Assembly (NCBI GenBank): GCA_963844585.1
Contig: CAWJOV010000001.1
Coordinates: 40,312-104,311 of the forward strand
Direction: 5' to 3'
From: an uncultured Solirubrobacterales bacterium
GTDB lineage: Bacteria > Actinomycetota > Thermoleophilia > Solirubrobacterales > Solirubrobacteraceae
DNA length: 64,000 nt
The position numbers and the translations under genes are program-made. Below, piece by piece: positions 3,798-64,000 of the stretch (position 1 is its first letter; the number at the start of each line of letters is the position of its first letter). Under the pieces are notes generated by a model. The model worked only from the letters and a program-made list of their open reading frames with translations, did no database searches and had not been told where the DNA came from.

Positions 3798-3847
3798 GAC
3801 CGATCGATCTGAGTCTGGATGCACCGATTCCGGGACTTTCCTTCCGA

Positions 3848-4390: not shown

Positions 4391-4408
4391 ATCGTCGAGC
4401 TGAGTCTC

Positions 4409-7003: not shown

Positions 7004-7094
7004 CAGCCGAGACCTCGGTGCGTCAACCTATGGTGGGTCCGGGTTATCCCCGCGCAGGGGTCCCGGACGATCGACCCGGCACCGTCCTGGAACA

Positions 7095-7856: not shown

Positions 7857-7865
7857 CCCGCCATG

Positions 7866-9572: not shown

Positions 9573-9677
9573 CAGTATGAGGGACAGGGCTAGCGGAAAT
9601 CAGACACCGACGCTCCCCACATCTACCCCGTCCGATTTCCGCCAGCATCCGGCGCCTGCGGGTGTCAGAGTAGGGGC

Positions 9678-10163: not shown

Positions 10164-10183
10164 GACGCATATATTTCGAGGCG

Positions 10184-11089: not shown

Positions 11090-11170
11090 GGGGAGGAGTC
11101 GAGAGGTTTTCTGGCGTGAACTGCATCCATCGCTGAATCCACCGCTTCAAACTAAGGCAGACTCTTTGGA

Positions 11171-12622: not shown

Positions 12623-12854
12623 TTGCCCACCAAATCCGTGCAAGCGATGGCGGAGCGAATCCGCCGCGTCGCCGCTCGCTGTCCCCCGACAACCCGTTGG
12701 AGCTGGTGTTCCATGCCAGAACACGGTTCCGACATGCTGCGTGATAGTCTCGCGCTCGTGGCCGGCGTGCGGCTGTCAGATGCCGCACCTCGCCCAACAT
12801 ATGGGCCAGTGGGAGAGGGTCCACGCGAGCATAAGCGACGATCGGAGGAGCGGG

Positions 12855-18593: not shown

Positions 18594-18596
18594 GAG

Positions 18597-20309: not shown

Positions 20310-20427
20310 CTGCAAAAACCGAACCGGAATCCGATCATCGTAGGGGCTCGCCGTCGGCGTGTACGAGAACATGGAGCGCCCCCCGGGATCCTCGCGGGCT
20401 GTCGTTGCCGGAGCGGCTCGCGGTCCC

Positions 20428-39581: not shown

Positions 39582-39592
39582 TGGGGCGAGCG

Positions 39593-44280: not shown

Positions 44281-47792
<3,512 letters not shown>

Positions 47793-47796
<4 letters not shown>

Positions 47797-49397: not shown

Positions 49398-49466
49398 GCA
49401 GCCCTGAGCAAGGCGCCCGCGGGATGAGCAGCCCTGAGCAAGGCGCCCGCCGACGATGAGCAGCCC
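49375..49466 (+). repeat. 30-bp x3 gene-junction repeat with a 21-codon bridging ORF
   Basis: Units start at 49375, 49405 and 49435 (tgagcaaggcgcccgcgggatgagcagccc). ATGA overlaps at 49394-49397 and 49456-49459. Confidence 0.9.
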
Positions 49467-49881
49467 TGGGCAACCAGCTTCGGGAGAGCCCGTCGGGGCC
49501 CTCGCGCTAGCGGTGATCGAGCGCTCCGAGCGGGATGGCGTGCGGATCGTGGTGGTTGCCGGCGAGCTGGATGTGTCGAATGTCGGTGGCCTCGAGGATG
49601 CCGCGCGTGGCCTATCCAACGAGGCGCTGGGGGTGGTGGTGGATCTGCGCGGCGCCACATACATCGACAGCGCCACGATCGGCATCCTCTTCAAGCTCCA
49701 TCGCCGGTTGAGAGGGCGCGGGCAGGTGCTACGCGTGATTTGTGTTCCGGGCTCGAATACATGGCGTGTGCTCGAGCTGACTGGGTTCGATCGCCGGCTG
49801 CGAGCCGAGCAGGATCGTGAGGCGGCGATCGATGCGATCCGTGCGGCCGTGCCGCTCGGAGACGAGGGCGCGACCTCCTGA
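49456..49881 (+). CDS. STAS-domain anti-sigma-factor antagonist
   Basis: 141 aa. VVAGELDVSNV...VVVDLRGATYIDSATIGILF is a SpoIIAA/RsbV-like pattern including the phosphorylatable Ser context DSA. Confidence 0.8.
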   Translation: MSSPGQPASGEPVGALALAVIERSERDGVRIVVVAGELDVSNVGGLEDAARGLSNEALGVVVDLRGATYIDSATIGILFKLHRRLRGRGQVLRVICVPGSNTWRVLELTGFDRRLRAEQDREAAIDAIRAAVPLGDEGATS

Positions 49882-50154: not shown

Positions 50155-51405
50155 ATGAGTCCGGATGCACGCGATCGGGAGCGCGCACGCAATCGGGGGC
50201 GCTCGCTCGATGAGATTCGCGTGGGGGTCGCCGGGCGGCTGCGGGCGCGTCGCACGGAGATCGTGGAAGCGATCTTCGACTGTGTGCGCGAGCTCGTGCC
50301 CGACCCCGCCGGAAGCGAGGATCCCGAGCTCCTCGTCGGCCTGCGTGGCGCGGTGGCAGGCGCGATCGACTATGGCCTGACCTGCGTCGAGCGAGGGGAG
50401 GAGTGGTCGGAGGCGATCCCGCAGGCGACGGTGAGCCAGGCGCTCCGGGCCGCCAACGCCGGCGTCAGCCTCACGACCGTGCTGCGCCGCTACGTCGTCG
50501 GGCACCAGCGGCTGTCGGCGTTCGTGCTGGAGGAGATCGAGCATGGCAACCCCTCGAATGAGCAGCGAGCTGCGCTACTGTCGCAGACCTCGACCGCGCT
50601 GTCGACGCTGCTCGGCCGGTTGCAGACGTCGATGACCGAGACATACATGCACGAGATCGCACGCAAGACGCGCTCGCGTGAGCAGCGCCGTGGCGAACTG
50701 GTGCAGCGTCTGCTGGCCGGCGACTGGGTGGACTCCGGTGAGCTGGGCTACGAGCTGCGCACCGAGCACATCGCGATTCTCGCCGCGGGCACCGGCGCGG
50801 CGGAGGCGGTGCGCGCCGTGGCGGGGGAGCTGGATCGCCAGCTGCTGAAAGTGCCGCGTGTGGATGGAACGGTGTGGGCATGGTTGGGCGGGGGCCGCGG
50901 GCTGGCGCTCGCACGGGTCGAGTTGGTGTTGAGCAAGGAGGCGTATGCCGATGTCAGAGTGGCGATGGGCGCACGGGCGCGGGGGGTGGTGGGCTTTCGT
51001 CTCACCCACCAGCAGGCGCAGGCGGCATTACGGATCGCTCACACCACGCAGCGGCGCATCACCCGCTTCGAGGACGTGGCACTGGAGTCGCTGGTGCTCC
51101 AGAACGGGGCGATGGCGGGTTCGCTATTGGAGCTGTATCTCTCGCCGCTCGACCACAACGGCGACGGCGCGGAGCTGCGTCAGACGCTGCGGGCCTACTT
51201 CGCCGCCGGTCGTCAGGCATCGGCCGCCGCCTCCGCGCTCGGCGTCGAGCGCCGCACGGTGACCTACCGCCTGCACAAGATCGAGGAGCTGCTCAAATGC
51301 AGGCTGCACACGCGTCTGGCGGAGCTCGAAGTTGCCCTGCGCTTGGAGGAGCTGCTCGGAACTGAAGGTGAATTTGTTTCTCACCCACCGGCGCGCCCGC
51401 GATGA
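50155..51405 (+). CDS. PucR/CdaR-family transcriptional regulator
   Basis: C-terminal HTH LRQTLRAYFAAGRQASAAASALGVERRTVTYRLHKIEELL is typical of the PucR C-terminal domain. Confidence 0.75.
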   Translation: MSPDARDRERARNRGRSLDEIRVGVAGRLRARRTEIVEAIFDCVRELVPDPAGSEDPELLVGLRGAVAGAIDYGLTCVERGEEWSEAIPQATVSQALRAANAGVSLTTVLRRYVVGHQRLSAFVLEEIEHGNPSNEQRAALLSQTSTALSTLLGRLQTSMTETYMHEIARKTRSREQRRGELVQRLLAGDWVDSGELGYELRTEHIAILAAGTGAAEAVRAVAGELDRQLLKVPRVDGTVWAWLGGGRGLALARVELVLSKEAYADVRVAMGARARGVVGFRLTHQQAQAALRIAHTTQRRITRFEDVALESLVLQNGAMAGSLLELYLSPLDHNGDGAELRQTLRAYFAAGRQASAAASALGVERRTVTYRLHKIEELLKCRLHTRLAELEVALRLEELLGTEGEFVSHPPARPR

Positions 51406-51757
51406 GCCACACCGGAAACGCCGCGCTGCTCCTTACGCCACATTGACGTAGGGCGTACCTCCCGCAGCTGATACAAATATCTCGATCATGGTCCATAGTA
51501 GGATCACAACTTTGTTTCTGATCAACGGTATGTTGCGTAAATTTCCGACATTCAATCCACGTGAGCGCTCGCGGGTGGGCTTCGCGCCGAGGTGTGAATT
51601 CGCCGATCGAAATGGGAAGCGTGGAGGATCTACCGGCGCCGGTAGATTTGCGGGTGGCCGGCGCTACCGAGGTTGCTTGGTTGCAATGGTGAAAGGTGGC
51701 GGCCTGCCTCGACGCGGATACGCTCATCGTGTGCCGACGATGAGGTTAAAAATCTAG

Positions 51758-52294
51758 ATGCGACGGGTGGGGATAGACGGTAAGCAGGAGTCCCCCGCGA
51801 ACGGTGAGCGACAGGTCGCCATGAATCCGGTAGCGTGGGTCGTGCAAGGCGAGCTGGATCTGGCCGATTGGGTCGCATACGGGCGGCGGATTGGAGTTTC
51901 GGGGCGGAGCTCCGGATGGTGGATCGGCGATTGGCTGAGGTATGGGAATGCGCGGTTTGGCGAACGCTATTCGCGCGCGTCGAAAACCACTGGGTATGAC
52001 CCGCAGACGCTGATGAACATGGTGTATGTCGCGTCGCGCTACGGTGTGGAGCGGCGTAGGGAGCACTTGTCGTGGTCGCATCACGCCGAGCTGGCGGCGC
52101 TCGACCAGGAGGAGCAGGAGCGCTGGTTGACGGTGGCCGAACAGGAGCGGTGGTCGCTGGGCGACCTGCGCGTGGCGTGTCGCAATAGCCGCGGCAAACG
52201 GGGCGCCGAGAAAGTGGAGGACAAGCGGGGAGACAGCCACGGCACGGTCCCGAAGGGGTACGCCTGCCCGCGGTGCGGCTACGTCTCGACTTAA
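51758..52294 (+). CDS. LmbU-family transcriptional regulator (tentative)
   Basis: WWIGDWLRYG...YDPQTLMNMVYVASRY...RREHLSWSHHAELAAL..EEQERWL..AEQERWSLGDLR matches my recollection of the LmbU-family consensus. C-terminal CPRCGY half-ribbon. Confidence 0.55.
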   Translation: MRRVGIDGKQESPANGERQVAMNPVAWVVQGELDLADWVAYGRRIGVSGRSSGWWIGDWLRYGNARFGERYSRASKTTGYDPQTLMNMVYVASRYGVERRREHLSWSHHAELAALDQEEQERWLTVAEQERWSLGDLRVACRNSRGKRGAEKVEDKRGDSHGTVPKGYACPRCGYVST

Positions 52295-52300
52295 CTCTTA

Positions 52301-52414
52301 CGCACCCCCGCCGACTCGCACTTCCGCCGACTCGCACCCCCGCGGACTTGCACCTCCGCCGACTCGCACCCCCGCCGACTCGCACCCCCGCCGACTCGTA
52401 CCCCTGCGCGACTT
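52301..52414. repeat. 16-bp x7 tandem array (cgcacccccgccgact)
   Basis: Units at 52301, 52317, 52333, 52350, 52365, 52381 and 52397, the last degenerate. Starts 7 nt after the regulator stop and ends 53 nt before the ER operon ATG. Confidence 0.9.
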
Positions 52415-52428
52415 GGGCCAGGCGGGAC

Positions 52429-52457
52429 TTGAGCCAGGCGGGCGAGGCGAGTAGCTT
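52429..52457 (+). promoter_or_regulatory. candidate sigma70-type promoter giving a near-leaderless ER operon transcript
   Basis: TTGAGC, 17 nt, TAGCTT. The -10 element ends 9 nt before ATG 52467, and there is no SD sequence. Confidence 0.3.
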
Positions 52458-52466
52458 GCACACACG

Positions 52467-53267
52467 ATGCGTCAGTCGCAGCTGCTGGCAGGCAAGCGGA
52501 TTCTCATCACCGGGGTGTTGACCACGAAGGGGATCGGGTACGCGATTGCCCGCGAAGCCCAGGAGGCGGGAGCCGAGATCGTGCTGAGCAGCTTCGGCAG
52601 GATGCGCGCGATCACGGTGCGGGCGGCCCGCCAGTTGCCACGTCCCGCGGACGTGCTGGAGCTGGATGTCACGAGCGAGCAGGACCTGGCTCGGGTGGCG
52701 GAGGAGCTGCGGCAAGGGTGGGGGTCGCTGGATGGGGCAGTGCACGCGGTCGCGTATGCGCCCCCCGAGGCGATGCGGGGCGAGCTGCTCTCCACCCCGG
52801 GCGAGGCGGCGTGCCGCGCCTTCGGCACGAGCGTGGTGTCGCTGGCACGGTTGGCGGCGGCGCTGCGGGAGTTGATGTGCGGCGAGGAGGAGCAGAGGGC
52901 CAGTCTGGTGGGGCTGAGCTTCGAGTCCTCGACGGCGTGGCCGTCGTATGACTGGATGGGGGTGAGCAAGGCGGCGCTGGAGTCGGTGGCGCGCTATCTA
53001 GCACGGGATCTGGGAGGCGACGGGGTGAGGGTCAACACCGTGTCGGCGGGCCCGATCCTGACATTGGCGGCGAGCGAGATACCGGCGTTCGAGGAGATCG
53101 CCGACACCTATGCGGAACGTGCCCCGCTGGGCTGGGATCGCTTCGACGCGGGGCCGATCGCGGGGGCCGTGTGCTTTCTGCTCTCCGACTGGTCGCGGGG
53201 AATGACCGGTCAGACGCTGCACGTGGACGGCGGCTGTCGCGCGGTGGGGATGGCACCGGTGCGATGA
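52467..53267 (+). CDS. InhA-type NADH-dependent enoyl-ACP reductase, copy 1
   Basis: Colinear with M. tuberculosis InhA by eye: LLAGKRILITGV, LELDV, catalytic WPSYDWMGVSKAALESV (Tyr/Lys), LLSDW. Confidence 0.85.
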   Translation: MRQSQLLAGKRILITGVLTTKGIGYAIAREAQEAGAEIVLSSFGRMRAITVRAARQLPRPADVLELDVTSEQDLARVAEELRQGWGSLDGAVHAVAYAPPEAMRGELLSTPGEAACRAFGTSVVSLARLAAALRELMCGEEEQRASLVGLSFESSTAWPSYDWMGVSKAALESVARYLARDLGGDGVRVNTVSAGPILTLAASEIPAFEEIADTYAERAPLGWDRFDAGPIAGAVCFLLSDWSRGMTGQTLHVDGGCRAVGMAPVR

Positions 53268-54106
53268 GCCTGCTGGCGGGCAAGCGACTGCTGATCACCG
53301 GCGTGGCGACCAAGCACAGCATCGCCCACGCGATCGCCTGCGAGGCGCAGGCGGCCGGCGCGGAGGTGATCCTGACGAGCTTCGGGCGCGTACGCTCGAT
53401 GACCGAGCGCTCGGTAAGGACACTTCCTCGGCCGGCGCGTGTGCTGGAGCTTGACGTGGGCGTGCCGGAGCACTTCGACGCCCTGCGCGAACTGATCCTC
53501 GGCGACTACGGGGCGCTCGACGGGGCCGTCCACGCGATCGCGTGGGCCCCGGAAGAGGCGTTCGGCGGGCGCTTCCTGGAGGCCTCGCGCGAGAGCGCGA
53601 TGGAGGCACTCGGCACGAGCGCCTTCTCCTTCAAGGCGCTGGCCCAGGCGCTTGCCCCGGCCTTCGCCGCGAACGGTCGCGGCAGTCTGGTGGGGTTGGA
53701 CTTCGACGCCACGGTGGCGTGGCCGCTGTATGACTGGATGGGGGTGTGCAAGGCGGCGCTGGAGTCGATCTCGCGCTACCTCGCCCGCTATCTCGGCGAA
53801 CAGGCCACGCGTGTGAACCTGATCGCGGCGGGGCCGATCGTGACGCCGACGGCCAACGGGATTCCAGGTTTCTCTGAATTGATCGAGCTGTGGGGGTATC
53901 AGGCGCCGCTCGGGTGGAACAGCCGCGACCCGCGACCGATCGCGCGCGCCGCGTGCTTTCTGCTGAGCGACTGGGCGGAAGGGATCACCGGAGAGATCCT
54001 CCACGTCAACGGGGGCTTCCACGCGATGGCGGCACCATTTCCCGAGCGCATGAAGTGGGGATCCCAAGCCGAAGCACCAACTCCACCTGCCTACCTCGCA
54101 AAGTGA
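53264..54106 (+). CDS. InhA-type enoyl-ACP reductase, copy 2
   Basis: ATG overlaps the copy-1 stop (ATGA). LLAGKRLLITGV, WPLYDWMGVCKAALESI, LLSDW. About 20 extra C-terminal residues. Confidence 0.85.
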   Translation: MSLLAGKRLLITGVATKHSIAHAIACEAQAAGAEVILTSFGRVRSMTERSVRTLPRPARVLELDVGVPEHFDALRELILGDYGALDGAVHAIAWAPEEAFGGRFLEASRESAMEALGTSAFSFKALAQALAPAFAANGRGSLVGLDFDATVAWPLYDWMGVCKAALESISRYLARYLGEQATRVNLIAAGPIVTPTANGIPGFSELIELWGYQAPLGWNSRDPRPIARAACFLLSDWAEGITGEILHVNGGFHAMAAPFPERMKWGSQAEAPTPPAYLAK

Positions 54107-54344
54107 AGGTGGGCGTTCGCATCAAGCACATCAACGCCAAGCCATACCTGTCGCGCGGGTGGTGCGATGTCTCTCAAAACAGACCTAAACCCTTCACAAA
54201 ATGAAGTGGTAGGGCCAAAAAAGTAATACACAACAACCCCACCCCCACGCTCACTTCCATGGCCCGACGATCTCGTCCGCCCGTGACCGTTGCGGTGTGC
54301 GGTGCGAGCGTGAAAGCCAACCGAATCGCTGCTATGCGCCGCCG

Positions 54345-54524
54345 CCACGTAATGCGCTGCCACGTCACGCGCCCCCACGTAATGCGCCCCCACGTAATGC
54401 GCCGCCACGTAATGCGCTGCCACGTCACGCGCCCCCACGTAATGCGCTGCCACGTAATGCGCTGCCACGTAATGCGCCGCCACGTCACGCGCCCCCACGT
54501 CATGCGCCGCACCGTCGGGCGCCG
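54345..54524. repeat. 15-bp x12 tandem array (ccacgtaatgcgc-nn)
   Basis: Exact 15-bp phase from 54345. Variants are taatgcgctg, tcacgcgccc and taatgcgccg. Ends 5 nt before the acyltransferase stop codon, and there are no spacers. Confidence 0.95.
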
Positions 54525-54529
54525 GCGGG

Positions 54530-55513
54530 TCAGGCGCCAGCAAGCGTACGCTCGACGAGCTCTGTGAGGATGCCGTGAGTGCCCATCTCGCGGTAGGACT
54601 CCACCCCCGCCGCATGCAGCGCGATCACACTCTCGCGCCAGCGCACGCATGAGGTCAGGGCGAGCGCGAGCTCGGAGCTGAAATCGGTGAAAGGCGCGGC
54701 GGTGACATTGGCGATCACGGTCATCCGCGGCACCCTGAACCGCGCCATCTCGAGCGCGTGCCTGAAGGGCGCGACCGCGGCGGCCATCGCGCTGGAGTGA
54801 AGCGCGGCGGGCACGCGCAGAAGCACCGTCTTCAGCCGGCCCTCCGAGCGAGCCTGCGTGCGCGCGGCCCGCAGACGCTCGAGCGGGCCGGAGAGGACGA
54901 GCTGCGCGGGCTCGTTGTCGGCGGCGAGCGTCAGCCGATGGCACTCCCCGAGCTGCAGCGCGAGCGGGCGCGGTCCCATCACGGCGAGCAGCCCGCCGGG
55001 CGCGCCGGAGTCGGCGGCGCGCTGCATCGCCGCCCCTCGCGCGAGCACGATCCGCATGCCTTCGCGCGCGCTCAGGCAGCCGGCCGTCGTCAGGGCGGTG
55101 AGCTCGCCGAGCGAGTGGCCGACGGCGAAGTCCGCGAGCGGCTCTCCCGCCGCGCGCCAGTGCGCGAGCGTGCCGCAGAACACCGCCGGCTGCAGGTAGG
55201 CCGTCCCCTCCTCCGCCCGCTCGAACGGGTCTCCCCCGAGCTCATCGGCGGCCTGCTGCAGCAACTCCGGGCAGAGCTCGCGGGCGAGCTGGTGCATCGC
55301 GCGATCCTGGCTGCCCTGGCCGGGGAACAGAAGCGCGCTGCGGGAGCCAGGCCGATCGCTTGCGAGATTGGGGTGGGGAGGGGGGAGCGTCCGCGCGCGG
55401 GAGCGCATCGACCAGCCTGCTGGGCGCGGGGCCTCCTGCCCCGCGTCCACCCCGGTTGACAAATGGGCGTATGTGTTGGTGGTGCGATGGGCGTGGTCGG
55501 TGGTGCGCGACAT
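54530..55513 (-). CDS. stand-alone acyltransferase (FabD / trans-AT type)
   Basis: Start at the ATG 8 nt after AAGGAGG. FPGQGSQ, active-site GHSLGE, NEPAQLVLSG, and AALHS in place of the HAFH/YASH specificity motif. Confidence 0.8.
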   Translation of the reverse strand: MSRTTDHAHRTTNTYAHLSTGVDAGQEAPRPAGWSMRSRARTLPPPHPNLASDRPGSRSALLFPGQGSQDRAMHQLARELCPELLQQAADELGGDPFERAEEGTAYLQPAVFCGTLAHWRAAGEPLADFAVGHSLGELTALTTAGCLSAREGMRIVLARGAAMQRAADSGAPGGLLAVMGPRPLALQLGECHRLTLAADNEPAQLVLSGPLERLRAARTQARSEGRLKTVLLRVPAALHSSAMAAAVAPFRHALEMARFRVPRMTVIANVTAAPFTDFSSELALALTSCVRWRESVIALHAAGVESYREMGTHGILTELVERTLAGA

Positions 55514-55591
55514 AGTCGTTTCCTCCTTGCTGGCCATCGGGCGGCACACACGCTGGCAGCGACGCGAACTGCTGTCGAAGCACGGACGGGC

Positions 55592-55785
55592 GCGCGGACG
55601 ACGTGGTGATCGCCCGCATCGAAGCCAGGTGATGGTGCGCGGATGACGTGGTGATCGCCGGTATCGAAGCCAGGTGATGGGGTGCGGATGACGTGGTGAT
55701 CGTCCGTATCGAAGCCAGGGTGTTAGGGCGCGCGGATGGTGTGGCGATTGCCCGCATCGAAGCCAGGGGTGCTGGGGCGCGTGGA
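55592..55785. repeat. about 45-bp x4 tandem array in a divergent promoter region
   Basis: The anchor atcgaagccagg occurs at 55618, 55663, 55708 and 55756. The anchor acgtggtgat occurs at 55601, 55646 and 55691. Confidence 0.9.
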
Positions 55786-55833
55786 GTTTGGGTGTGCGCG
55801 GTCGCGCCGGGTACGCTCGGCGACCGATCGTGA

Positions 55834-57528
55834 ATGATCGTGCGATTCATGGATATGACACTCGAGCTTGCTCCCCCATCCCCCCTCCCACTCGCGGAGC
55901 CCGTCGCTTCGCCCTCGCTTTCTCCCCCGCGTGTGCGGATGGAATGCCTGCTGGACCCGGGCTCGCTGCAGCTGCTGAGGACGCGCGTGCGCTCGCAGCG
56001 GCTGGGCCTGGACGCGTACGACGGCGATGGCGTGCTCACGGGGATCGGCACGGTGGAGGGACGGCCGGTGGCCTGCTACGCGCAAGATGCCCGCGTGGCC
56101 GCCGGCTCGCTCGGCGTGAGCCAGGCCGACGCGATCGTGCGGCTGTTGGGGATGGCGCGCGAGGCGCGCATGCCGGTCGTCTCGTTCCTGGCATCGTCGG
56201 GTGCGCGGATCCAGGAGGCCGTGGCGGCGCTCGCCGGGTATGCCCGCGTGTTCAACGAGATCGTCGCGCTCTCGCGGGTGGTGCCGCAGATCTCGATCGT
56301 CACCGGGGTGTGCGCCGGCGGCGGCGCCTACGCGCCGGCGTTGACCGACTTCGTGATCATGACCCAGTCGGCCGCGATGTTCCTCACGGGTCCTCGCATA
56401 GTGCGCGACGCGTGCGGGGAGGACGTCACGGTGGCCGAGCTCGGCGGCGCGCGGGTGCACCGCGCCAACGGCGTCTGTCAGCTGGTGGCAGCCGACGACG
56501 ACGATGCCGCCGCGCAGGCACGGTGGCTGCTCTCCCACCTCACGCCAGGCCGCGTCGAGCGTGCCGCGCGTGCCGGGGGCTCCGCCGAGGATTTCGCGCG
56601 ACTTGCCGATGCGGCCGAGCGTCCAGCGCGCATCGATCCCGCGGGGCGTCCCACGCGTGTCGATCCTTCGGAGCATCCCACGTGCGTCGATCCTGCCGAG
56701 CGTCACGCACACAAAGCCCCGATCGCGGGTCGAGGAGTGGCACGCGACCCCGGCTCCGTACTGCCGTCGCGCCCGAGCGCGGTGTACGACGTGCGCGAGG
56801 TAATCCGCGCGCTGGCCGACCGCGAGGACTTCCTGGAGACCGACGCCAGCTGGGCGCGCAACATCGTGACCGGCTTCGCCCGCATCGGCGGCCACGCGAT
56901 CGCGGTGGTGGCCAACCAGCCGCGGTTCATGGGCGGAGTGATCGACACCCACGCCTCCGAGAAGGCGGCGCGCTTCGTGGATCTGTGCGCGGCTTTTGGG
57001 CTGCCGCTGGTGGTGTTGGTCAACACCCCGGGCTTCATGCCGGGCACGCGCCAGGAGGGGGAGGGGATCATCCGCCACGGCGCGGGCATCGTGAGGGCTT
57101 TCGCCGCCGCGCGCGTGCCCCGCTTCACCGTGATCCTGCGCAAGGCGTACGGCGGCGCGTACATCGCGATGAACTCGATTCACCTCGGCGCCTCGCTGGT
57201 GTATGCGTGGCCGGACGCGGAGATCGGCGTGATGGACGCCCGTAGTGCCGTCAGCTTGATCCACCGAGCGACGCTTGCGCAGGCGAGCGATCCCGAAGAG
57301 CTGTTGCGCACGCTCGCGAGCGACTACCGGCGCGAGCATTGCGCTGCACTGGTGGCGGCGCACGGCGGCTTCGTCGACGAGGTGATCGCGCCGGCTCAGA
57401 CGCGCGCCTGTTTGTGCTCGGCGCTGGCGACGTTTGGGTCTGGTGGGGGGCGCGCGCCGGTGCGGGCATGGGCTCCCCACCACTCGGTGGGGTTGGACGC
57501 CGAGCGGGACACGGCGGAGGTGTATTGA
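55834..57528 (+). CDS. acyl-CoA carboxylase carboxyltransferase (beta) subunit, PccB/AccD-like
   Basis: LLDPGS, GIGTVEGRPVACYAQD, SGARIQE, TGVCAGGGAY in the N-domain. C-domain ANQPRFMGGVID...RKAYGGAYIAM. A 27-bp x4 insert (56614-56721) lies in the interdomain linker. The start is uncertain (55834-55939). Confidence 0.8.
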   Translation: MIVRFMDMTLELAPPSPLPLAEPVASPSLSPPRVRMECLLDPGSLQLLRTRVRSQRLGLDAYDGDGVLTGIGTVEGRPVACYAQDARVAAGSLGVSQADAIVRLLGMAREARMPVVSFLASSGARIQEAVAALAGYARVFNEIVALSRVVPQISIVTGVCAGGGAYAPALTDFVIMTQSAAMFLTGPRIVRDACGEDVTVAELGGARVHRANGVCQLVAADDDDAAAQARWLLSHLTPGRVERAARAGGSAEDFARLADAAERPARIDPAGRPTRVDPSEHPTCVDPAERHAHKAPIAGRGVARDPGSVLPSRPSAVYDVREVIRALADREDFLETDASWARNIVTGFARIGGHAIAVVANQPRFMGGVIDTHASEKAARFVDLCAAFGLPLVVLVNTPGFMPGTRQEGEGIIRHGAGIVRAFAAARVPRFTVILRKAYGGAYIAMNSIHLGASLVYAWPDAEIGVMDARSAVSLIHRATLAQASDPEELLRTLASDYRREHCAALVAAHGGFVDEVIAPAQTRACLCSALATFGSGGGRAPVRAWAPHHSVGLDAERDTAEVY

Positions 57529-57595
57529 TGCGCGTTGCGCCCAACGATCTCTTGGCCGGGTCGGACGCCGTCGGCGACACGGTGGGGCGCTGCTG

Positions 57596-58738
57596 ATGGA
57601 CTTCGAGTGGACGCACGAGCAGCGCGAGCTGCACGCCGGCGCCGTGGAGGCGGGCGAGCGGATCGCCGCCGCCCAGGCGCGCGCGGATGGGCAAAACGCG
57701 TTCAGCGCACAGGCGTGGAGCGCCGCGAGCGCGTTCGGCCTGGCGGGGCTGGACGTGCCGCGCGAGTACGGCGGCCTCGGCCTGGACCGTCTGACGACCG
57801 CGCGCGTGCTGGAGGGCTTCGGCGAAGGCTGCCCGCAGCTCGGCCTGGTGTTCTCGGCCGCCGCCCACCTGTTTGCCTGCTGCGGGCCGATCGCCAGCGC
57901 GGGTAGCCGCGAGCTGCGCGAGTCGCTGCTGCCGCGCCTCGCCAGCGGGGCGCTGATCGGCGCCAACGCGATCACCGAGTCGGAGGCGGGGTCGGACATC
58001 CTCGCGTTGCGCACGCTGGCAACCCGCGACGGCGACGGGTATCGCATCACAGGCGAGAAGACGCTCGTCACCAATGGGCCGGTGGCCGACGTCACGATCG
58101 TCTACGCCCGTACGCAGCCCGAGGGCGGGTATCTCTCGCTGAGCGCGTTCGCGGTTGAGCGCGACACGCCCGGCTTCCTTGCGGGCGAGCCGTTCGCGAA
58201 GATCGGGCTGCAGGGCTCGCCGACTGGCAGCGTGTATCTGCAGGAGAGCCCGGTGCCGCGCGAGAACCTGATCGGGGCGGAGGGCCAGGGCGCGCTGATC
58301 TTCAAGGCGGCGATGCAGGCCGAGCGCGCCTGCCTGTTTGCCGCCTACATCGGCGCGATGGCGCGCCAGCTGCGGGAGGTGGTGAGCTTCGCCTCCGAGC
58401 GCCGTCAGTTCGGTCGGGCGATCGGCAAGAACCAGGCGATCTCGCACCGCATCGTGGACATGAAGCTGCGCTTGGAGGCGGCACGGCTGCTGGTGTACCG
58501 GGCGTGCTGGCTGCTCGACCGGGGGCGCGACGCGATGGTGGCGGTGTCGCTCGCCAAGATCGCCGCCAGCGAGGCGGCGGTGCAGTCGGGGCTGGACACG
58601 ATCCACATCCATGGCGGCCTCGGGGTGATTTCGGAGACGGGGGTCGCGGGGCTGCTGCGGGATGCCCTGCCCGCGACCCTCGTCTCGGGCACATCGGAGA
58701 TCCAGCGCGACATCGTCGCGGCGAGGCTGGGGCTGTGA
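57596..58738 (+). CDS. acyl-CoA/acyl-ACP dehydrogenase family flavoprotein
   Basis: Start at ATG 57596 (MDFEWTHEQ). GANAITESEAGSD, a C-terminal GGLG...SGTSEIQRDIVA. The usual YEG Glu is Ser here, and a Glu sits in MQAERA. Confidence 0.85.
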   Translation: MDFEWTHEQRELHAGAVEAGERIAAAQARADGQNAFSAQAWSAASAFGLAGLDVPREYGGLGLDRLTTARVLEGFGEGCPQLGLVFSAAAHLFACCGPIASAGSRELRESLLPRLASGALIGANAITESEAGSDILALRTLATRDGDGYRITGEKTLVTNGPVADVTIVYARTQPEGGYLSLSAFAVERDTPGFLAGEPFAKIGLQGSPTGSVYLQESPVPRENLIGAEGQGALIFKAAMQAERACLFAAYIGAMARQLREVVSFASERRQFGRAIGKNQAISHRIVDMKLRLEAARLLVYRACWLLDRGRDAMVAVSLAKIAASEAAVQSGLDTIHIHGGLGVISETGVAGLLRDALPATLVSGTSEIQRDIVAARLGL

Positions 58739-58827
58739 GCACGCTCGAACCAAGCACCACGTTCCTAGGCGCTTCGGAGATCCTGTACGACATCGTCGCG
58801 GCGAGGCTGGGGTTGTGAGCACGCTCG
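58694..58827 (+). repeat. 80-bp period gene-junction duplication with a 27-codon bridging ORF
   Basis: A 54-nt block, tcggagatcc..gacatcgtcgcggcgaggctgggg(c/t)tgtgagcacgctcg, occurs at 58694 and again at 58774. GTGA overlaps at 58735-58738 and 58815-58818. Confidence 0.9.
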
Positions 58828-60638
58828 CGCCCAGCCCCCCGCGGATGCGCTCGCTCGCGGACGTGTTCGCGAGCGGGCTGGCGCGCAGCCCCGACGGCCC
58901 CGCCGTGCGCGAGCCCGGTCGCGAGGTGAGCTACCGCGAGCTCGACGCGTTGATCGAGCGACTGGTGGCGTCGCTCGTCGAGCTCGGCGTGGGCCGCGGG
59001 GAGCGCGTGGCGGTGTGGCTGCCCAAGTCGGTCGAGGCGATCGCCGCAATGCAGGCCGCCGTGCGCGTGGGCGCGGCGTACGTCCCGATCGATCCGCTCA
59101 GCCCACCTGAGCGCGTGCGGCGGGTGCTCGGCGACTGCCAGGCGTCGGCGTGCGTGGCGAGCGCCGAGGGTATCGAGCAGGCGCTGGCGGGCGAGCTCCC
59201 CGGTCTTTCGCTGGTGACGCCCGCGGCGGGCAGCGACGGGTGGGAGGTGCGGCGCGGCGTCGATCCGCGCGAAACGCCTCTCGAGAGGTGGCCTGTCGGG
59301 AAAGGAGCCGGTGGCGCGGCGGCGGCGCGGCGGGGTATCGATGGGGGCGGTGTCGATCGGCGGGGTGTCGATGGACGGGGTGTCGATGGGGGCGGTGTCG
59401 ATCGGCGGGGTGTCGATGGACGGGGTGTCGATGGGGGCGGTGTCGATCGGCGGGGTGTCGATGGACGGGGTGTCGATGGGGGCGGTGTCGGTCGGCGGGG
59501 CATTGATAGGGACGGCGTCGGTCGGCGGCGCGTACGCGAGGCGGCTCCCGTGGGCACGCTCGCCGACACGGACTCCCCGGGCGAGGACGAGCTCGCCTAC
59601 ATCCTCTACACCTCGGGCTCGACCGGCACGCCAAAGGGGGTGTGCATCTCGCACCGTAACGCGCTCGCGTTCGTCGAATGGGCGTACGCCGAGCTTGCGC
59701 CGACTGACGAGGACCGGTTCGCCAACCACGCGCCGCTGCACTTCGACCTGTCGGTGCTCGACCTCTACGTGGCGTTCCTAGCGGGCGCCTGCGTGTGCCT
59801 GATCCCGGAGACGATCTCGTTCATCCCCGCGCGGCTGGTGGAGCTGGTGCGCGCTGAGCGCATCACGATCTGGTACTCGGTGCCCTCCGCGCTGATGTTG
59901 ATGGAGCGTGCCGGGCTGCTCGAGGATCCCCCGCAGGCGCTGCGTGCCGTGCTGTTCGCCGGCGAGCCCTTCCCGATCGAGCCGTTGCGCCATCTGCGCG
60001 GCGCGCTGCCGCGGGCGCGGCTTTTGAACCTGTACGGCCCCACCGAGACCAACGTCTGCACCTGGTATGAGGTGGGCGAGATCGACGAGGACGCCGAGCG
60101 GCCGGTGCCGATCGGCAAGGCGTGTTCGGGCGACAAGGTGTGGATCGAAGATCGCGACGGCTTTCCGGTGCCGGTCGGCGGGCGTGGCGAGCTGGTGGTG
60201 GAGGGGCCGACGGTGATGCTCGGCTACTGGGGCGCGCGTCGGCAGCGCGGGCCGTATCGAACCGGCGACATCGCCGAGCGCATCTCGCCCGAGGAGTACC
60301 GCTACGTGGGCCGCCGCGACGCGATGGTGAAGGTGCGGGGGCACCGCGTGGAGCTGGGCGAAGTCGAGGCGGCGCTGGTCGCCCACGAGGAGATCCGCGA
60401 GGCCGCGGTGGTGGTGCTCGGCACGGGTCTCGACAGCCGTCTCGTGGCCGCCGTGGTGGCCCGCGCCGATACTGCCCTGGGGCTGCTGGAGATCAAGCGC
60501 TGGTGCGCGGAGCGCCTGCCGCGCTACATGATCGTGCACGAGCTGCGCGTGCTCGCCGAGTTGCCCCGCAGCCGCAACGGCAAGCTCGACCGCCGCGCGC
60601 TTGCCGCGCAGCTGTCGGCGGGGGAGCCGGCCCTGTGA
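58815..60638 (+). CDS. stand-alone adenylation enzyme (DltA / NRPS A-domain type)
   Basis: Start at GTG 58815. Core motifs LAYILYTSGSTGTPKGV, FDLSV, NLYGPTET, YRTGD, GRRDAMVKVRGHRVELGEVE, NGKLDR. Confidence 0.85.
   Translation: MSTLAPSPPRMRSLADVFASGLARSPDGPAVREPGREVSYRELDALIERLVASLVELGVGRGERVAVWLPKSVEAIAAMQAAVRVGAAYVPIDPLSPPERVRRVLGDCQASACVASAEGIEQALAGELPGLSLVTPAAGSDGWEVRRGVDPRETPLERWPVGKGAGGAAAARRGIDGGGVDRRGVDGRGVDGGGVDRRGVDGRGVDGGGVDRRGVDGRGVDGGGVGRRGIDRDGVGRRRVREAAPVGTLADTDSPGEDELAYILYTSGSTGTPKGVCISHRNALAFVEWAYAELAPTDEDRFANHAPLHFDLSVLDLYVAFLAGACVCLIPETISFIPARLVELVRAERITIWYSVPSALMLMERAGLLEDPPQALRAVLFAGEPFPIEPLRHLRGALPRARLLNLYGPTETNVCTWYEVGEIDEDAERPVPIGKACSGDKVWIEDRDGFPVPVGGRGELVVEGPTVMLGYWGARRQRGPYRTGDIAERISPEEYRYVGRRDAMVKVRGHRVELGEVEAALVAHEEIREAAVVVLGTGLDSRLVAAVVARADTALGLLEIKRWCAERLPRYMIVHELRVLAELPRSRNGKLDRRALAAQLSAGEPAL
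59334..59528 (+). repeat. 15-bp x13 in-frame repeat (GVDxx) inside the adenylation gene
   Basis: Codon-aligned units GIDGG, GVDRR, GVDGR and so on, with a 45-bp higher-order period x3. Lies immediately N-terminal to the A3 motif. Confidence 0.95.
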
Positions 60639-60901
60639 GCTCGGTCGAGCTTGTCTCCTATATCGAACCGCTGCGTGCGTTCATCGAGCGCGACCATCTC
60701 GACGGCCGCGTGACACTCACCGACGACGCGCCGCTGTTGGAGTGGGGGGTGATCGATTCGCTCGCGCTCGCCGATCTGATGGCGTTCATCGAAGAGCGCT
60801 TCGCCGTGAGCGTGCCACTGGAGGCGGTGACCCCGGCGAACTTCCGCACCCTGCAGACGATCGCGGCGATGCTCCAGGAGCTGGTGGCGGGTGAGCGCTG
60901 A
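60635..60901 (+). CDS. carrier protein (DltC/PCP-like)
   Basis: GTG overlaps the adenylase stop (GTGA). 88 aa with the phosphopantetheine site LLEWGVIDSLALADLMAFIEERF. Confidence 0.75.
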   Translation: MSSVELVSYIEPLRAFIERDHLDGRVTLTDDAPLLEWGVIDSLALADLMAFIEERFAVSVPLEAVTPANFRTLQTIAAMLQELVAGER

Positions 60902-60902
60902 G

Positions 60903-61118
60903 ATGGCGATTGCGAATAAGCACGAGGTGGCCGCGGCGGGTGTGCACGAGATGGCGACCGCGGGTGGGCACGGCAAGGGCGCCCACTGTGAGCGCCAGAT
61001 GGCTGCCCAGGGAAAGCGCGAGATGGCGACCGCGGGTGGGCACGGCAAGGGCGCCCACTGTGAGCGCCAGATGGCTGCCCAGGGAAAGCGCGAGATGACA
61101 ACCGCCGGTGAGGGCTGA
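60903..61118 (+). repeat. 72-bp repeats forming a 71-aa (75-aa from the alternative GTG at 60891) bridging ORF between carrier protein and KS
   Basis: gagatg-anchored units start at 60948, 61020 and 61092. The junction string GGTGAG(C/G)GCTGAGATG is present at both 60889 and 61106. Confidence 0.85.
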
Positions 61119-61119
61119 G

Positions 61120-63198
61120 ATGTCCGCCGCACGACCGCCGCTGGCGATCGTCGGCGTGGGCGCGCGCCTGCCCGGCAGCAGCGGTCCCGGTGCGTTCTGG
61201 GAGACGCTGCTGGGAGAGCGCGAGGAGATCGTCGACACCCCCGCCTACCGTGCCCGCACGCGCGCCAGCGAGGAGCGGCCGCCGACGCGCCGCGGCGTGC
61301 GGCGACGAGGCTCGGTCGGCGACGTGGAAGGGTTCGATTGGCGCGCTTTCCGCATGTCGCCGCGGGAGAGCAAGTACGTGGACCCCCAGCAGCGGCTGCT
61401 GCTGGAGACCGCCTGGGAGGCGCTCGAAGACGCCGGGATCCCGTTTGAGCGCATCGCCGGCACGCACACGGCGGTGTTCATGGGAATCATGTGGCCGGAC
61501 TACGCGAAGCTGCTCGCCGAGAACCCCGCGCAGCTCGCCGCCTATGCCACCTCTGGCGTGGGGTTTGCGCTGGCCGCCAACCGCATCTCTCACACTTTCG
61601 ACCTGCGTGGGCCAAGCGTCTCGCTCGACGTTCAGTGCGCCTCTTCGTTGGTAGCAGTATGCCTGGCGGCGTCGGCGATCTGGAGCGGCGACGCCGAGCT
61701 GGCGCTGGCAGGGGGCGTCAACCTGATTTTGGCGGCGGACTCCGACGTGATGATGGGCCGCGCGGGCATCCTCTCGCCGACCGGCCGCTGCATGACCTTC
61801 GACGCCGGGGCCGACGGCTTCGTGCGGGGCGAGGGCGCCGGTGTGATCGTCCTCAAGCCGCTTGCGGACGCGCTCGCCGACGGCGACCGCGTGCTCGCGA
61901 CGATCCGCGGCGCGGCGTGCAACCACGATGGGCGCCGCGCGGCGCTGACCGCTCCCTCGCACGACAGCCAGGTAGAGCTGGTGCGACGCGCCTGTGCGAG
62001 CGCCGGGGTGCAGCCGCGCGAGCTGGACTACGTGGAGCTGCACGGCACCGGCACGCAGAAGGGCGACCCGATCGAGGCGCGCGCGCTGGGTGAGGCGGTC
62101 GCCGGGCGCCACCAAGGCGATCCCTGCCTGGTGGGGTCGGTGAAGACCAACATCGGCCACTGCGAGTCGGCGGCGGGGGTCGCCTCGGTGATCAAGGTGG
62201 CGCTGGCGCTCCACCACGGAGTGATTCCGGCGACGATCAACCACACCGAGTTGCACCCCGAGATCGAGGCGGGCGCGCTGGGAGTCGAGCTGGTGACGGC
62301 TGCGCGCCCCTGGCCGGCGCGTACCCGTCCGTGGCTGGCGGGGATCAACGGCCTTTCGCTGGGCGGTGGCAACGCGCACGTGGTGCTCGAGCAGGCGCCC
62401 GCGGTGGTGGCGAGCGCCGATGCCGAGGGCTACGCCCTGCCTGGACCGCCGGTGTTGGTGTTGTCGGCGCGCACCGACTCTTCGTTGCGTGAGCTGGCGC
62501 TCGCCTATGCGCGACATCTCGAAGGGCTCGGCGATGACCATGCGGCGCTGCACGCGACGTGCGCGGCGGCGGCATTGCGACGGACTCACCACGAGCGCCG
62601 CGTGGCGGCCTTTGCCCAGAGCTCCGCGGAACTCGCCACGGCGCTGCGCCGGTTCGCTCGCGTTGCCGCCGGCACGGCCGTGTCACTGCCACCCCCCCGT
62701 ACCTCGCCCCGGGTTGGGCTGCGGCTCTCCGCGGATTTCGACGCTCACGCGCTGGAGACGCTGCGCGGGCGCTTGGCCGCGTGGGATGTGGCGGAGGTCT
62801 GCACCCTGGTGGGCGCCGACGATCTTCTTGGCGGTGAGGTGTCGTCGGCCATCGCGGCGTCGCCTGCCGCCACGGCGTCGCCTGCCGCCACGGCGTCGCC
62901 TGCCACCACGGCGCCGCCGGTCGCCGCGGAGCCGCCCTGCTCCGGCGAGCCACCGCGCCCGAGTGCCCCAAACCGGGAGCAGATGCTGGAGCTCGGGCCG
63001 TTGACGAGTCCGCAGGAGCTGCTCGCGTTTCTCTACCGCGGCGGCTGTACGGTGCAATGGTCGGCGATCTACGGTGCCCATTGCCCGGCGGTTGCGCTGC
63101 CAACGTACCGCTGGGAGCGCGAGCGGCTGTGGATCGACCCACTGCCGGAGAGCGCGATGGCGGACGGAGTTAGAGGCGATCTTGCGCACGCCGGTTGA
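61120..63198 (+). CDS. stand-alone type I PKS-style ketosynthase with C-terminal linker, no AT
   Basis: IAIVGVGARLPG, DPQQRLLLE, active-site DVQCASSL, HGTGT, NIGHCESAAG, then a tail of about 250 aa containing ASPAAT x3 (62857-62910). Alternative GTG start at 61108. Confidence 0.85.
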   Translation: MSAARPPLAIVGVGARLPGSSGPGAFWETLLGEREEIVDTPAYRARTRASEERPPTRRGVRRRGSVGDVEGFDWRAFRMSPRESKYVDPQQRLLLETAWEALEDAGIPFERIAGTHTAVFMGIMWPDYAKLLAENPAQLAAYATSGVGFALAANRISHTFDLRGPSVSLDVQCASSLVAVCLAASAIWSGDAELALAGGVNLILAADSDVMMGRAGILSPTGRCMTFDAGADGFVRGEGAGVIVLKPLADALADGDRVLATIRGAACNHDGRRAALTAPSHDSQVELVRRACASAGVQPRELDYVELHGTGTQKGDPIEARALGEAVAGRHQGDPCLVGSVKTNIGHCESAAGVASVIKVALALHHGVIPATINHTELHPEIEAGALGVELVTAARPWPARTRPWLAGINGLSLGGGNAHVVLEQAPAVVASADAEGYALPGPPVLVLSARTDSSLRELALAYARHLEGLGDDHAALHATCAAAALRRTHHERRVAAFAQSSAELATALRRFARVAAGTAVSLPPPRTSPRVGLRLSADFDAHALETLRGRLAAWDVAEVCTLVGADDLLGGEVSSAIAASPAATASPAATASPATTAPPVAAEPPCSGEPPRPSAPNREQMLELGPLTSPQELLAFLYRGGCTVQWSAIYGAHCPAVALPTYRWERERLWIDPLPESAMADGVRGDLAHAG

Positions 63199-63205
63199 GA
63201 GCCCG

Positions 63206-63952
63206 ATGCAGTCCGGCTGTGCGCTGGTGAGCGGCGCTTCGCGCGGCATTGGCGCGGCCTGCGCCCAACAGCTGGCGCGGAGCGGTTGGGCCGTGGGGGT
63301 GAACTTCCGCGCGAACGAGGCGCAGGCGCTGGAGACGGTCGATGCGATCGAGCGTGCCGGGGGACGAGCACTGGCGCTGGCGGGCGACGTCTGCGAGCAG
63401 GGGGATGTCGAGAGCATGTTTGCGCGCCTGGAGGAGGTGTATGGGCCGGTGTTGGTGCTCGTTAACAACGCGGGAATCACGCACGATGCGCTTGCGATGC
63501 AGTTGCGCGACGAGGAGTGGCGGAGTGTGATCGAGACGAACCTCGGCGGGGCTTTCCGGATGACGCGCCGCGCACTGCGCGCGATGATGCGCGCGCGCTT
63601 CGGGCGGATCGTCAACGTCGCCTCGCTGAGCGCGCTCCGGGCGGTTCCCGGACAGTCCAACTACGCAGCCTCGAAGGCGGGGCTGATCGCCCTCACGATG
63701 ACGATCGCGATCGAGGTGGCACGCCGCGGCGTGACCGTCAACGCGGTTGCACCGGGCCTGATCGAGACGGACATGACGCGCGAGCTACTCGACGGCGACG
63801 TGCACGAGCGGGTACCGGCGATGCGCATCGGCGATGCCTGCGAGGTTGCCTCATGCGTCGACTTCCTCGTCTCCCCACAAGCGGGGTACATCACGGGTGC
63901 GGTGATACCAATCGATGGAGGCCTCAGTGCGGCGGCGTCCTCACCTCCTTGA
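63206..63952 (+). CDS. 3-oxoacyl-ACP reductase (FabG-type SDR)
   Basis: Start at ATG 63206. SGASRGIGAA, NNAGI, and catalytic S...YAASKAG. Confidence 0.85.
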   Translation: MQSGCALVSGASRGIGAACAQQLARSGWAVGVNFRANEAQALETVDAIERAGGRALALAGDVCEQGDVESMFARLEEVYGPVLVLVNNAGITHDALAMQLRDEEWRSVIETNLGGAFRMTRRALRAMMRARFGRIVNVASLSALRAVPGQSNYAASKAGLIALTMTIAIEVARRGVTVNAVAPGLIETDMTRELLDGDVHERVPAMRIGDACEVASCVDFLVSPQAGYITGAVIPIDGGLSAAASSPP

Positions 63953-64000
63953 TTCACGGCCGCCGCCCTTCTCTGGGTCACGCCCATCGTCCCGCTCTGG

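Follow-up and report, generated by a model that had tools for sequence, protein, structure and literature searches.

A conserved orphan gene cluster of uncultured Solirubrobacterales that probably links a proline-derived pyrrole starter to fatty-acid-type elongation and A-factor-type release

In the described pyrrole cassettes of pyoluteorin (PltF/PltL/PltE), prodiginine (PigI/PigG/PigA and RedM/RedO/RedW), bromopyrrole (Bmp), clorobiocin and indanomycin biosynthesis, the same trio of proteins recurs, namely an adenylation enzyme (PltF being the L-proline-[prolyl-carrier-protein] ligase of pyoluteorin), a carrier protein and a flavin-dependent dehydrogenase, and in the prodiginine systems a discrete ketosynthase (KS; PigJ/RedX) follows the carrier. 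Enzymes of the AfsA type, including AfsA, MmfL and the PBS domain of gladiostatin biosynthesis, release 3-keto thioesters by condensation with dihydroxyacetone phosphate (DHAP) to give a phosphorylated butenolide (PMC7756379), and AfsA homologs are widespread and at times lie inside polyketide synthase (PKS) clusters (PMC8209734). Mid-chain methyl branches are made by a CMAS-type methyltransferase acting with an FAD oxidoreductase, as in 10-methyl-stearate synthesis by BfaB/BfaA (PMC5660069). Here we analyze a 64,000-nucleotide stretch of a contig from an uncultured Solirubrobacterales bacterium (CAWJOV010000001.1; hereafter the window), the last part of which, from 50.2 to 64.0 kb, belongs to a cluster that appears to combine elements of all three systems. 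We consider it probable, taking the account as a single whole, that this region is the left 60% or so of a conserved orphan biosynthetic cluster of approximately 23 kb, in which proline would be converted to a pyrrole starter, extended by the cluster's own fatty-acid-type enzymes, and probably released by an A-factor-type butenolide synthase encoded beyond the window.

Genes were called by third-position GC in this sequence of approximately 70% G+C and then subjected to Pfam, NCBIfam and PDB sequence searches, which found every gene named in the initial annotation at the place given for it. For comparison, we used syntenic loci in six metagenome-assembled genomes (MAGs) of uncultured Solirubrobacterales (L001–L006), two JGI soil contigs (L010 and L011), a 3.8 kb Logan short-read contig (L008), and the more distant contigs L009, L012 (ENA contig_2765) and L013. 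The initial description of a fully dissociated cluster with no characterized match agrees with our results: catalytic domains reside on separate small proteins in the window, L001–L006, L010 and L013, where no multimodular megasynthase architecture was encountered. Full-text literature searches returned no description of a cluster joining a pyrrole cassette with AfsA, CMAS or such a fatty acid synthase (FAS) gene set, no pyrrole cluster from Solirubrobacterales, and no cluster combining pyrrolyl, trans-acyltransferase (trans-AT), enoyl reductase and carboxyltransferase functions. Each part belongs to a known family, and the novelty lies in how the parts are combined and in the host lineage.

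Three contiguous genes, with a KS gene directly after them, form what by sequence is the canonical cassette for converting L-proline to pyrrole-2-carboxyl-S-carrier, formation of the pyrrole itself being very likely but not proven. The first (57596–58738, + strand), initially labeled an acyl-CoA dehydrogenase (ACAD), encodes an FAD-dependent homolog of prolyl-carrier-protein dehydrogenases of the PigA/RedW/Bmp3/PltE type; its best NCBIfam matches are PigA (441 bits) and the L-prolyl-peptidyl-carrier-protein dehydrogenase RedW (423 bits), the next ACAD family scoring 236 bits, and its top PDB matches are Bmp3 (6cxt_B), PigA (5zw0) and AnaB (4irn). The second (58815–60638, + strand) encodes a stand-alone, PltF-like L-proline adenylation enzyme, for which GTG at 58815 and ATG at 58845 are the candidate starts, the longest open reading frame (ORF) beginning at 58662. 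Its best PDB match is PltF (6o6e, E = 2.4e-149) and DltA scores much lower; the initial gene labels were right as families, but "DltA-like" was wrong for this enzyme. The specificity code, DLLYLALVCK, equals that of PltF at 10 of 10 Stachelhaus positions, an identity read straight off the printed alignment at positions that we take to correspond to GrsA numbering. The third gene (60635–60901, + strand; identical gene call in L010) encodes an 88-aa prolyl/pyrrolyl carrier protein with the motif GVIDSL, best matched in the PDB by Bmp1-CP (6cxt_A, the partner chain of 6cxt_B) and then by PigG and PltL. While each of the three proteins thus finds its best matches in the known cassettes and the discrete KS after the carrier recalls PigJ/RedX, the cluster differs from those systems in having neither a halogenase nor a modular type I PKS nor enzymes for a bipyrrole. 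Its partners are instead a trans-AT-style KS, FAS-II-type enzymes, a carboxyltransferase, CMAS and AfsA, and its adenylase is enlarged by a tandem-repeat insert of about 95 aa.

The KS gene (61120–63198, + strand) encodes a stand-alone type I ketosynthase of trans-AT style that has a KS-AT linker/flanking subdomain without an acyltransferase (AT): Pfam recognizes ketoacyl-synt, Ketoacyl-synt_C, KAsynt_C_assoc and CurL-like_PKS_C but no Acyl_transf_1, and the Cys-His-His triad is intact (DVQCASS, HGTGT and NIGH). It lies directly after the carrier gene in L001–L005, L009, L010, L011 and L013, and in L012 is preceded by a short Pfam-less ORF at the carrier position. The free-standing, trans-AT-type malonyl-CoA:ACP (acyl carrier protein) transacylase (54530–55549, − strand; Acyl_transf_1), which probably begins further downstream than 55549, with 55408 as one candidate start, is best matched in the PDB by the trans-ATs DisD, PksE and PksC and then by FabD. 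With its active site intact (FPGQGSQ, GHSLGE, the active-site Arg, and AALHS where DisD has AAFHS), the natural reading of this protein is a malonyl-specific trans-AT. The region therefore holds the pairing of a trans-AT PKS, a KS with flanking subdomain and no cis-AT plus a free-standing malonyl AT.

The remaining elongation enzymes of the window resemble those of FAS-II. A FabG-type 3-oxoacyl-ACP reductase (KR; 63206–63952, + strand) with Ser and Tyr-x3-Lys present scores 236.9 bits against the 222-bit cut-off of the NCBIfam FabG subfamily PRK12826.1-2 and invariably lies downstream of the KS in the relatives examined. Two FabI/InhA-type enoyl-ACP reductases, both with the InhA-type catalytic Phe/Tyr/Lys, exceed the 299-bit cut-off of NCBIfam FabI PRK07889: copy 1 (52467–53267, + strand; 313.7 bits) is 80% identical in L002–L004, and copy 2 (53264–54106, + strand; 327.8 bits; gene call from L008) overlaps the copy 1 stop codon with its start and is 53% identical to copy 1. 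Two FabI genes accompany AfsA, and only one is found where AfsA is absent; the idea that the second FabI is an extra paralog tied to AfsA was nevertheless rejected, as the single copies fall to different paralogs, that of L009 grouping with FabI1 and that of L012 with FabI2; no role could be assigned to either. Judged by their families, the FabI, FabF, KR, dehydratases, ACP and AT of the cluster make up a dedicated elongation set that is complete except for FabH, so initiation would fall to the pyrrolyl carrier together with the type I KS.

Several of these genes lie past the window end, and the initial annotation was right that the cluster is truncated there, since near-identical contigs carry more of its genes beyond 64000. 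L010 and L011 are 97–98.7% identical to the window at 58.9–64.0 kb, run through its end and extend 7.9 kb further; position 64000 corresponds to L010 4533, up to which L010 is 98% identical. The window closes in the KR-MaoC spacer with the first unit (63977–64000) of a 24-bp tandem array, which in L010 reads CTCTGGGTCACGCCCATCGTCCCG x6.8. The genes that follow in L010 are, in order, MaoC (164 aa), CMAS, ACP, AfsA (339 aa), Amino_oxidase, a second, HadAB-like MaoC matching the fused HadA/HadB model, HxlR (− strand), SnoaL, FabF and a short-chain dehydrogenase/reductase (SDR) whose best match is "mycolate reductase". The same downstream genes are carried by L001–L004 and L006, except for the 164-aa MaoC in L002–L004. 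Family searches agreed with the initial annotation that 50–64 kb contains no dehydratase, thioesterase, transporter or biotin carboxylase; the missing dehydratase is encoded a short way past the window end, where AfsA, not a thioesterase, is the probable release enzyme.

This AfsA homolog, outside the window, has two A-factor hotdog domains and scores 203.7 bits in L010 against the cut-off of 200 for the NCBIfam ScbA/BarX gamma-butyrolactone-synthase equivalog, while its L001 counterpart reaches 195.2 bits with the same model and contains two Pfam AfsA stretches. Like the AfsA/ScbA/MmfL synthases, it is a two-hotdog protein, placed here directly after an ACP, and like the AfsA-like release domain of the gladiostatin/gladiofungin trans-AT PKS it occurs in the context of a PKS or FAS able to deliver a 3-ketoacyl-ACP (PMC7756379). 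The differences from these systems are that the AfsA is free-standing, the predicted starter is a heteroaromatic one derived from an amino acid, no ArpA/ScbR receptor or recognizable BprA or phosphatase lies nearby, and the host belongs to Thermoleophilia and not to Streptomyces or Burkholderia.

A KS scan of species-representative genomes recovered the six loci L001–L006, all from uncultured Solirubrobacterales MAGs, in which the whole gene order is syntenic with protein identities of 60–97%; L001 is 92–94% identical in DNA over window positions 50.4–64.0 kb. Protein searches yielded about 38 orthologs of the stand-alone KS (52–95% identical), all from metagenomes or MAGs and none from cultured organisms, and lower matches were ordinary PKS fragments. 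The distant contigs, with KS identities of 53–65%, keep the carboxyltransferase (CT), ACAD, adenylase, carrier, KS and KR genes together with FabI and ACP; FabF is seen in L009 and L012, and L013 ends before the FabF position. The order in L009 (KS 53%; 1–21899) is CMAS, ACP, CT, ACP, FabF, FabI, a crotonase (ECH), ACAD, adenylase, carrier, KS, KR, MaoC, SnoaL and amine oxidase; this contig also encodes two large proteins (861 and 713 aa) without a family match. L013 (KS 65%) has FabI-ECH-FabI, an MFS transporter, the AT, the core, MaoC, SnoaL, CMAS, ACP and, at 15666–17657, a haloalkane-dehalogenase-like hydrolase fused to AfsA. L012 (KS 62%; 3730–21818) reads FabF, FabI, CT, ACAD, adenylase, carrier, KS, KR and ACP, followed by a serine-palmitoyltransferase/BioF-like alpha-oxoamine synthase, a dipeptidase, MMPL, a CqsA-like alpha-oxoamine synthase, a phosphopantetheinyl transferase (PPTase), a thioesterase and a large type I PKS. 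An off-loading enzyme, either AfsA or an alpha-oxoamine synthase, thus always follows the ACP, and both kinds act on acyl or 3-ketoacyl thioesters.

Two further patterns of gene content were observed. CMAS and the amine-oxidase-like protein go together: L001–L004, L006, L009 and L010 have both and L012 has neither (L013 stops short of the position), which fits a functional pair like BfaB/BfaA. An ECH that is weakly FabM/PaaG-like lies between the two FabI genes in L002–L005 (L002 2488–3363) and is absent from the window and L001, while the 164-aa MaoC is absent from L002–L004 and present in L001 (12837–13331), L006 and L010; this looks like a non-orthologous swap of dehydratase/isomerase functions.

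The CT gene (55834–57528, + strand; Pfam Carboxyl_trans, 443 bits) encodes an acyl-CoA carboxylase beta subunit of the PccB/AccB type with an in-frame repeat insert in its inter-domain linker, matched in the PDB by PccB, the 12S transcarboxylase subunit, AccD5, AccD6 and MccB. It lies immediately upstream of the ACAD gene in L001–L005, L012 and L013 and further upstream in the same cluster in L009. The medium-chain enzyme MccB depends on Gly at position 161, which a conserved Phe occupies in the other beta subunits, and on Ala at the position of PccB Asp421/422 (Ray et al., PMC5187497). In the window CT, the signature of Gly161 and Ala423 is absent: "GYARVF" places Phe at the MccB-G161 position, and "GGAYIAMNS" places Ile at the PccB-D422 position (D422/A423), a residue that alignments show to be shared with a Thermotoga enzyme and an acetyl-CoA carboxylase beta chain. 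Since Phe and Ile do not make up the signature for bulky substrates, a short-chain pocket is predicted, and the enzyme most likely carboxylates acetyl- or propionyl-CoA. That the CT stands alone is explained by the fact that beta subunits of actinomycetes share an alpha subunit, which carries biotin carboxylase (BC) and biotin carboxyl carrier protein (BCCP), encoded elsewhere (PMC5187497).

Put together, these predictions would give the following pathway. By homology, the adenylase loads L-proline on the 88-aa carrier and the ACAD-type flavoenzyme oxidizes it there to a pyrrolyl (or pyrrolinyl) thioester; the adjacent KS may then condense this thioester with malonyl-ACP. The trans-AT would load the ACP with malonyl-CoA, itself presumably made by the CT together with a housekeeping biotin-carboxylase/BCCP alpha subunit. 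Reduction of the chain by the KR, MaoC/ECH and FabI and elongation by FabF could follow, for a number of rounds that is not predictable. The CMAS/FAD pair may act on an olefin of the ACP-bound chain by methylation and reduction, leaving a methyl branch, and AfsA would join the final 3-ketoacyl-ACP to DHAP, yielding a phosphorylated butenolide and ultimately a pyrrole-terminated product of the butenolide or gamma-butyrolactone type. Later reduction, by the SDR or one FabI, and dephosphorylation are guesses. PucR, LmbU and HxlR proteins are predicted to control expression. Of the three proposals made in the initial annotation, an amino-acid-primed, FAS-II-like pathway was therefore closest to the evidence and essentially right, although the proline-to-pyrrole cassette had not been recognized.

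A number of observations weigh against this account. At the starter end, the ACAD scores fall under the NCBIfam equivalog cut-offs of both PigA (500 bits) and RedW (650 bits), and AnaB, a 2-electron enzyme, scores nearly as high as PigA, so that the ACAD sequence cannot separate a 4-electron oxidation to pyrrole from an AnaB-type 2-electron oxidation to pyrroline. The constant position of the KR after the KS speaks for reduction of the first 3-keto intermediate; which substrate AfsA takes, and with what chain length, is therefore guesswork, and neither chain length nor final structure is predictable from sequence. AfsA, ACP, the dehydratases, CMAS and FabF all lie outside the window and are placed by near-identical or syntenic contigs, and the role given to the CT depends on just two pocket residues. 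L009 has no AfsA within 10 kb on either side, which puts AfsA outside the invariant core. Among the scanned ORFs of the window, no BprA-type reductase, phosphatase or TetR/ArpA-type receptor was identified; TetR-type (ArpA/ScbR) proteins were likewise not found in the flanks of L001, L010 and L013, the only regulators being PucR, LmbU and HxlR.

The alternative that survives best, though we consider it unlikely, is an envelope-lipid pathway following a meromycolate-like logic, in which a long methyl-branched acyl chain is capped by the proline-derived pyrrole and AfsA couples a C3 (DHAP) head, so that the product is a structural lipid and not a signal or antibiotic. The locus shares with mycobacterial-type FAS-II and CMAS systems its InhA-like FabI, FabG, MaoC/HadAB-like, FabF, ACP, FabD-like and AccD-like proteins, and a lipid role is favored by this full FAS-II-type set with its MaoC/HadAB-like dehydratases (one matching the fused HadA/HadB model), by the InhA relationship of the FabI proteins, the KasA-like FabF and the weak match of the ACP to AcpM, by the "mycolate reductase"-like SDR, and by the pairing of a CMAS methyltransferase with an amine-oxidase-like FAD enzyme as in the BfaA/BfaB system for 10-methyl-stearate. 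The related L012, moreover, has an MMPL transporter and a serine-palmitoyltransferase-like enzyme. In contrast to mycobacterial FAS-II, however, this cluster has no FabH, FAS-I or Pks13, appears to be primed by the pyrrolyl carrier and type I KS, and is accessory and patchy, with only six Solirubrobacterales species representatives found. Clusters of the window type contain no MMPL or lipid transferase, they include the pathway-type regulators LmbU and PucR, and their AfsA passes the gamma-butyrolactone-synthase equivalog cut-off, while chain length can be read from the sequence neither way. Also considered was a "mycolic" condensation in the manner of Pks13/AccD4, joining the pyrrolyl unit to a long acyl chain that has been carboxylated; the short-chain type of the CT pocket led us to reject it as the main model.

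Quite improbable in our assessment is the second initial proposal, in which the CT, ACAD, adenylase, carrier, KS, KR and enoyl reductase build an unusual carboxylated extender unit, for example a (pyrrol-2-ylmethyl)malonyl thioester, for use by another synthase, as a counterpart of the chlorizidine, stambomycin (MccB) or FK506 (TcsA-D) routes that needs no crotonyl-CoA carboxylase/reductase (CCR). The CT travels with the pyrrole cassette in every relative examined, directly before the ACAD in most, and the L012 subcluster adjoins a large type I PKS. Precedent exists in a YCC beta subunit producing alkylmalonyl-CoA: the CCR-independent stambomycin enzyme MccB/SamR0483 is, like the window CT, a lone beta subunit in a PKS cluster whose shared alpha subunit is encoded elsewhere (PMC5187497). 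Compared with the stambomycin, chlorizidine and FK506 extender subclusters, however, the window has no acyl-CoA ligase/CCR pair, and the proposal is weakened both by the missing CCR and by the CT pocket, where Phe stands in place of the Gly161 that MccB needs and Ile, not Ala, at D422/A423, a combination without the published medium-chain signature. Window-type clusters also have no modular PKS to consume such a unit, and from the AfsA mechanism an alpha-substituted 3-ketoacyl product would not be expected to undergo butenolide condensation.

The third initial proposal, that the product inhibits fatty-acid synthesis and that the extra FabI, CT and FabF are self-resistance genes of the BatG/AdmT type, gained no positive support, and we hold it to be very improbable. 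Duplicated FAS targets (two FabI, a CT and a FabF) do lie inside a biosynthetic cluster, and FabI1 and FabF are the most conserved proteins across relatives (80–82% identity compared to about 64% for the KS), but no resistance-type sequence feature was identified in them. KR, dehydratases, AT and ACP accompany them to form a complete working elongation set that travels with the pyrrole cassette in all relatives examined, as opposed to isolated target copies, and the missing FabH along with a priming KS beside the pyrrolyl carrier gives the FAS genes a biosynthetic role. Hardly credible, judged from the locus and its relatives, is a primary FAS-II or acetyl-CoA carboxylase locus that adjoins a small pyrrole cassette by chance: although both FabI proteins pass the NCBIfam FabI equivalog cut-off and a relative's FabF passes the FabF subfamily cut-off, the locus has no FabH, BC or BCCP, its FAS genes alternate with those for the pyrrole cassette, CMAS and AfsA, in orders that differ among distant relatives, and the distribution is patchy, orthologs having been found in no more than six species-level genomes and never in a cultured organism.

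The concentration of tandem repeats in the cluster that was noted initially was borne out by TRF, which reported about 10 arrays in the 13.8 kb cluster part and about 10 in the other 50.2 kb (binomial P = 0.005). With units of 15–72 bp, arrays occur at almost every cluster gene junction: in the spacers between LmbU and FabI1 (52301–52442), between the convergent FabI2 and AT genes (54340–54510), in the divergent AT/CT promoter (55589–55767), between carrier and KS (60920–61110), and at the window end (63977 onward). Others are in frame within genes, namely the CT (56627–56701), the adenylase (59329–59500) and the KS tail (62855–62929). Nearly all gaps in the alignment with L001 coincide with arrays, and L001–L004 bear arrays of their own at the homologous junctions, differing in unit or copy number. 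In the window an array (60905–61104) keeps the carrier and KS genes apart; in L010 the two genes abut. The AT/CT promoter array consists of a 45-bp unit x3.9, with a similar array in L001 (5059–5237; 44 bp x4.1) and unrelated 18-bp x3 arrays at the same spot in L002 (5265–5318) and L004 (5063–5113); these promoter repeats may be iterated operator sites for a cluster regulator.

Within the adenylase, the loop upstream of motif A3 (59264–59589, residues ~181–306) contains the insert of about 95 aa relative to PltF, including the tandem repeat, whose unit is 15 bp in the window and L001 (8424–8510) and 18 bp in L002 (8584–8620), L003 (8456–8651) and L004 (8368–8564). This loop is a hot spot of in-frame repeat expansion in several lineages. 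An origin of the arrays as long-read assembly artefacts was rejected for 50.6–54.4 kb, where the short-read Logan contig is 100% identical over 50605–54369, arrays included; differences in copy number relative to L010 and L011 could arise in part from collapsed short-read assemblies. Overall, such polymorphic arrays occur across the lineage and are enriched in the cluster without being unique to it.

At the left edge of the cluster, two regulator genes precede the FabI pair. The first (50155–51405, + strand) encodes a PucR-type transcriptional regulator with a GGDEF-like domain and PucR helix-turn-helix (Pfam GGDEF_2 and HTH_30) and is kept at this edge in L001, L002, L004 and L005; the second (51758–52294, + strand) encodes an LmbU-family regulator (NCBIfam LmbU_fam_TF, 133.3 bits against a cut-off of 125) that is kept in L001–L005 and called identically in L008. 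An Sfp-type PPTase (39386–40336, + strand; Pfam ACPS and AASDHPPT_N) may serve the cluster in trans; it lies apart from it, with approximately 10 kb of unrelated genes in between (M3 peptidase, GH76-like protein, hybrid histidine kinase, response regulator (RR)-SpoIIE-HATPase and STAS proteins). The part of this interval directly upstream of the PucR gene (44281–49881) is a signaling block resembling a partner-switching module, with a 1171-aa hybrid histidine kinase (four HAMP, GAF and receiver domains), an RR-SpoIIE-HATPase_c_2 protein and a STAS protein; the kinase gene contains a 276-bp x2.9 repeat (44777–45582). Farther away, a 1950-aa ORF (12741–18593, + strand) with Ig-like (AIR9/SCAB-Ig) and RCC1/WD40-RLD repeats occupies the stretch of lowest G+C in the window (0.61), which also has an unusually strong AT skew (0.29–0.35). 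A neighboring ORF (11171–12622, + strand), unrelated to the cluster, has two virginiamycin B lyase (Vgb) family matches and may encode either a resistance enzyme of the streptogramin type or a beta-propeller protein. Neither the Rfam nor the tRNA scan of the whole window gave a match.

Orphan clusters of such kind are common in metagenomes, and the value of this one lies in discovery chemistry more than in a new principle. To our knowledge, almost no natural products are known from Solirubrobacterales. If the pyrrole-primed pathway with AfsA-type release is correct, its product would be a new chemotype, a pyrrole-terminated acyl butenolide or gamma-butyrolactone, and a single lineage would bring together a heteroaromatic starter made from an amino acid, a trans-AT/FAS-II hybrid of dissociated enzymes and release of the AfsA type; the size of about 23 kb suits synthesis and heterologous expression. 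A broader idea, which we offer tentatively and do not yet think likely, is that CT, ACAD, adenylase, carrier, KS and KR with FabF, FabI and ACP form a portable subcluster, kept in uncultured soil Thermoleophilia, that makes a proline-derived pyrrolyl-acyl thioester, which AfsA in the window lineage, or synthases like CqsA and serine palmitoyltransferase in a sister lineage, may convert to new pyrrole-bearing butenolide, gamma-butyrolactone or amino-ketone signals outside the classical actinomycetes. Such redeployment of a single core with changing off-loading enzymes would make a useful example of how subclusters evolve.

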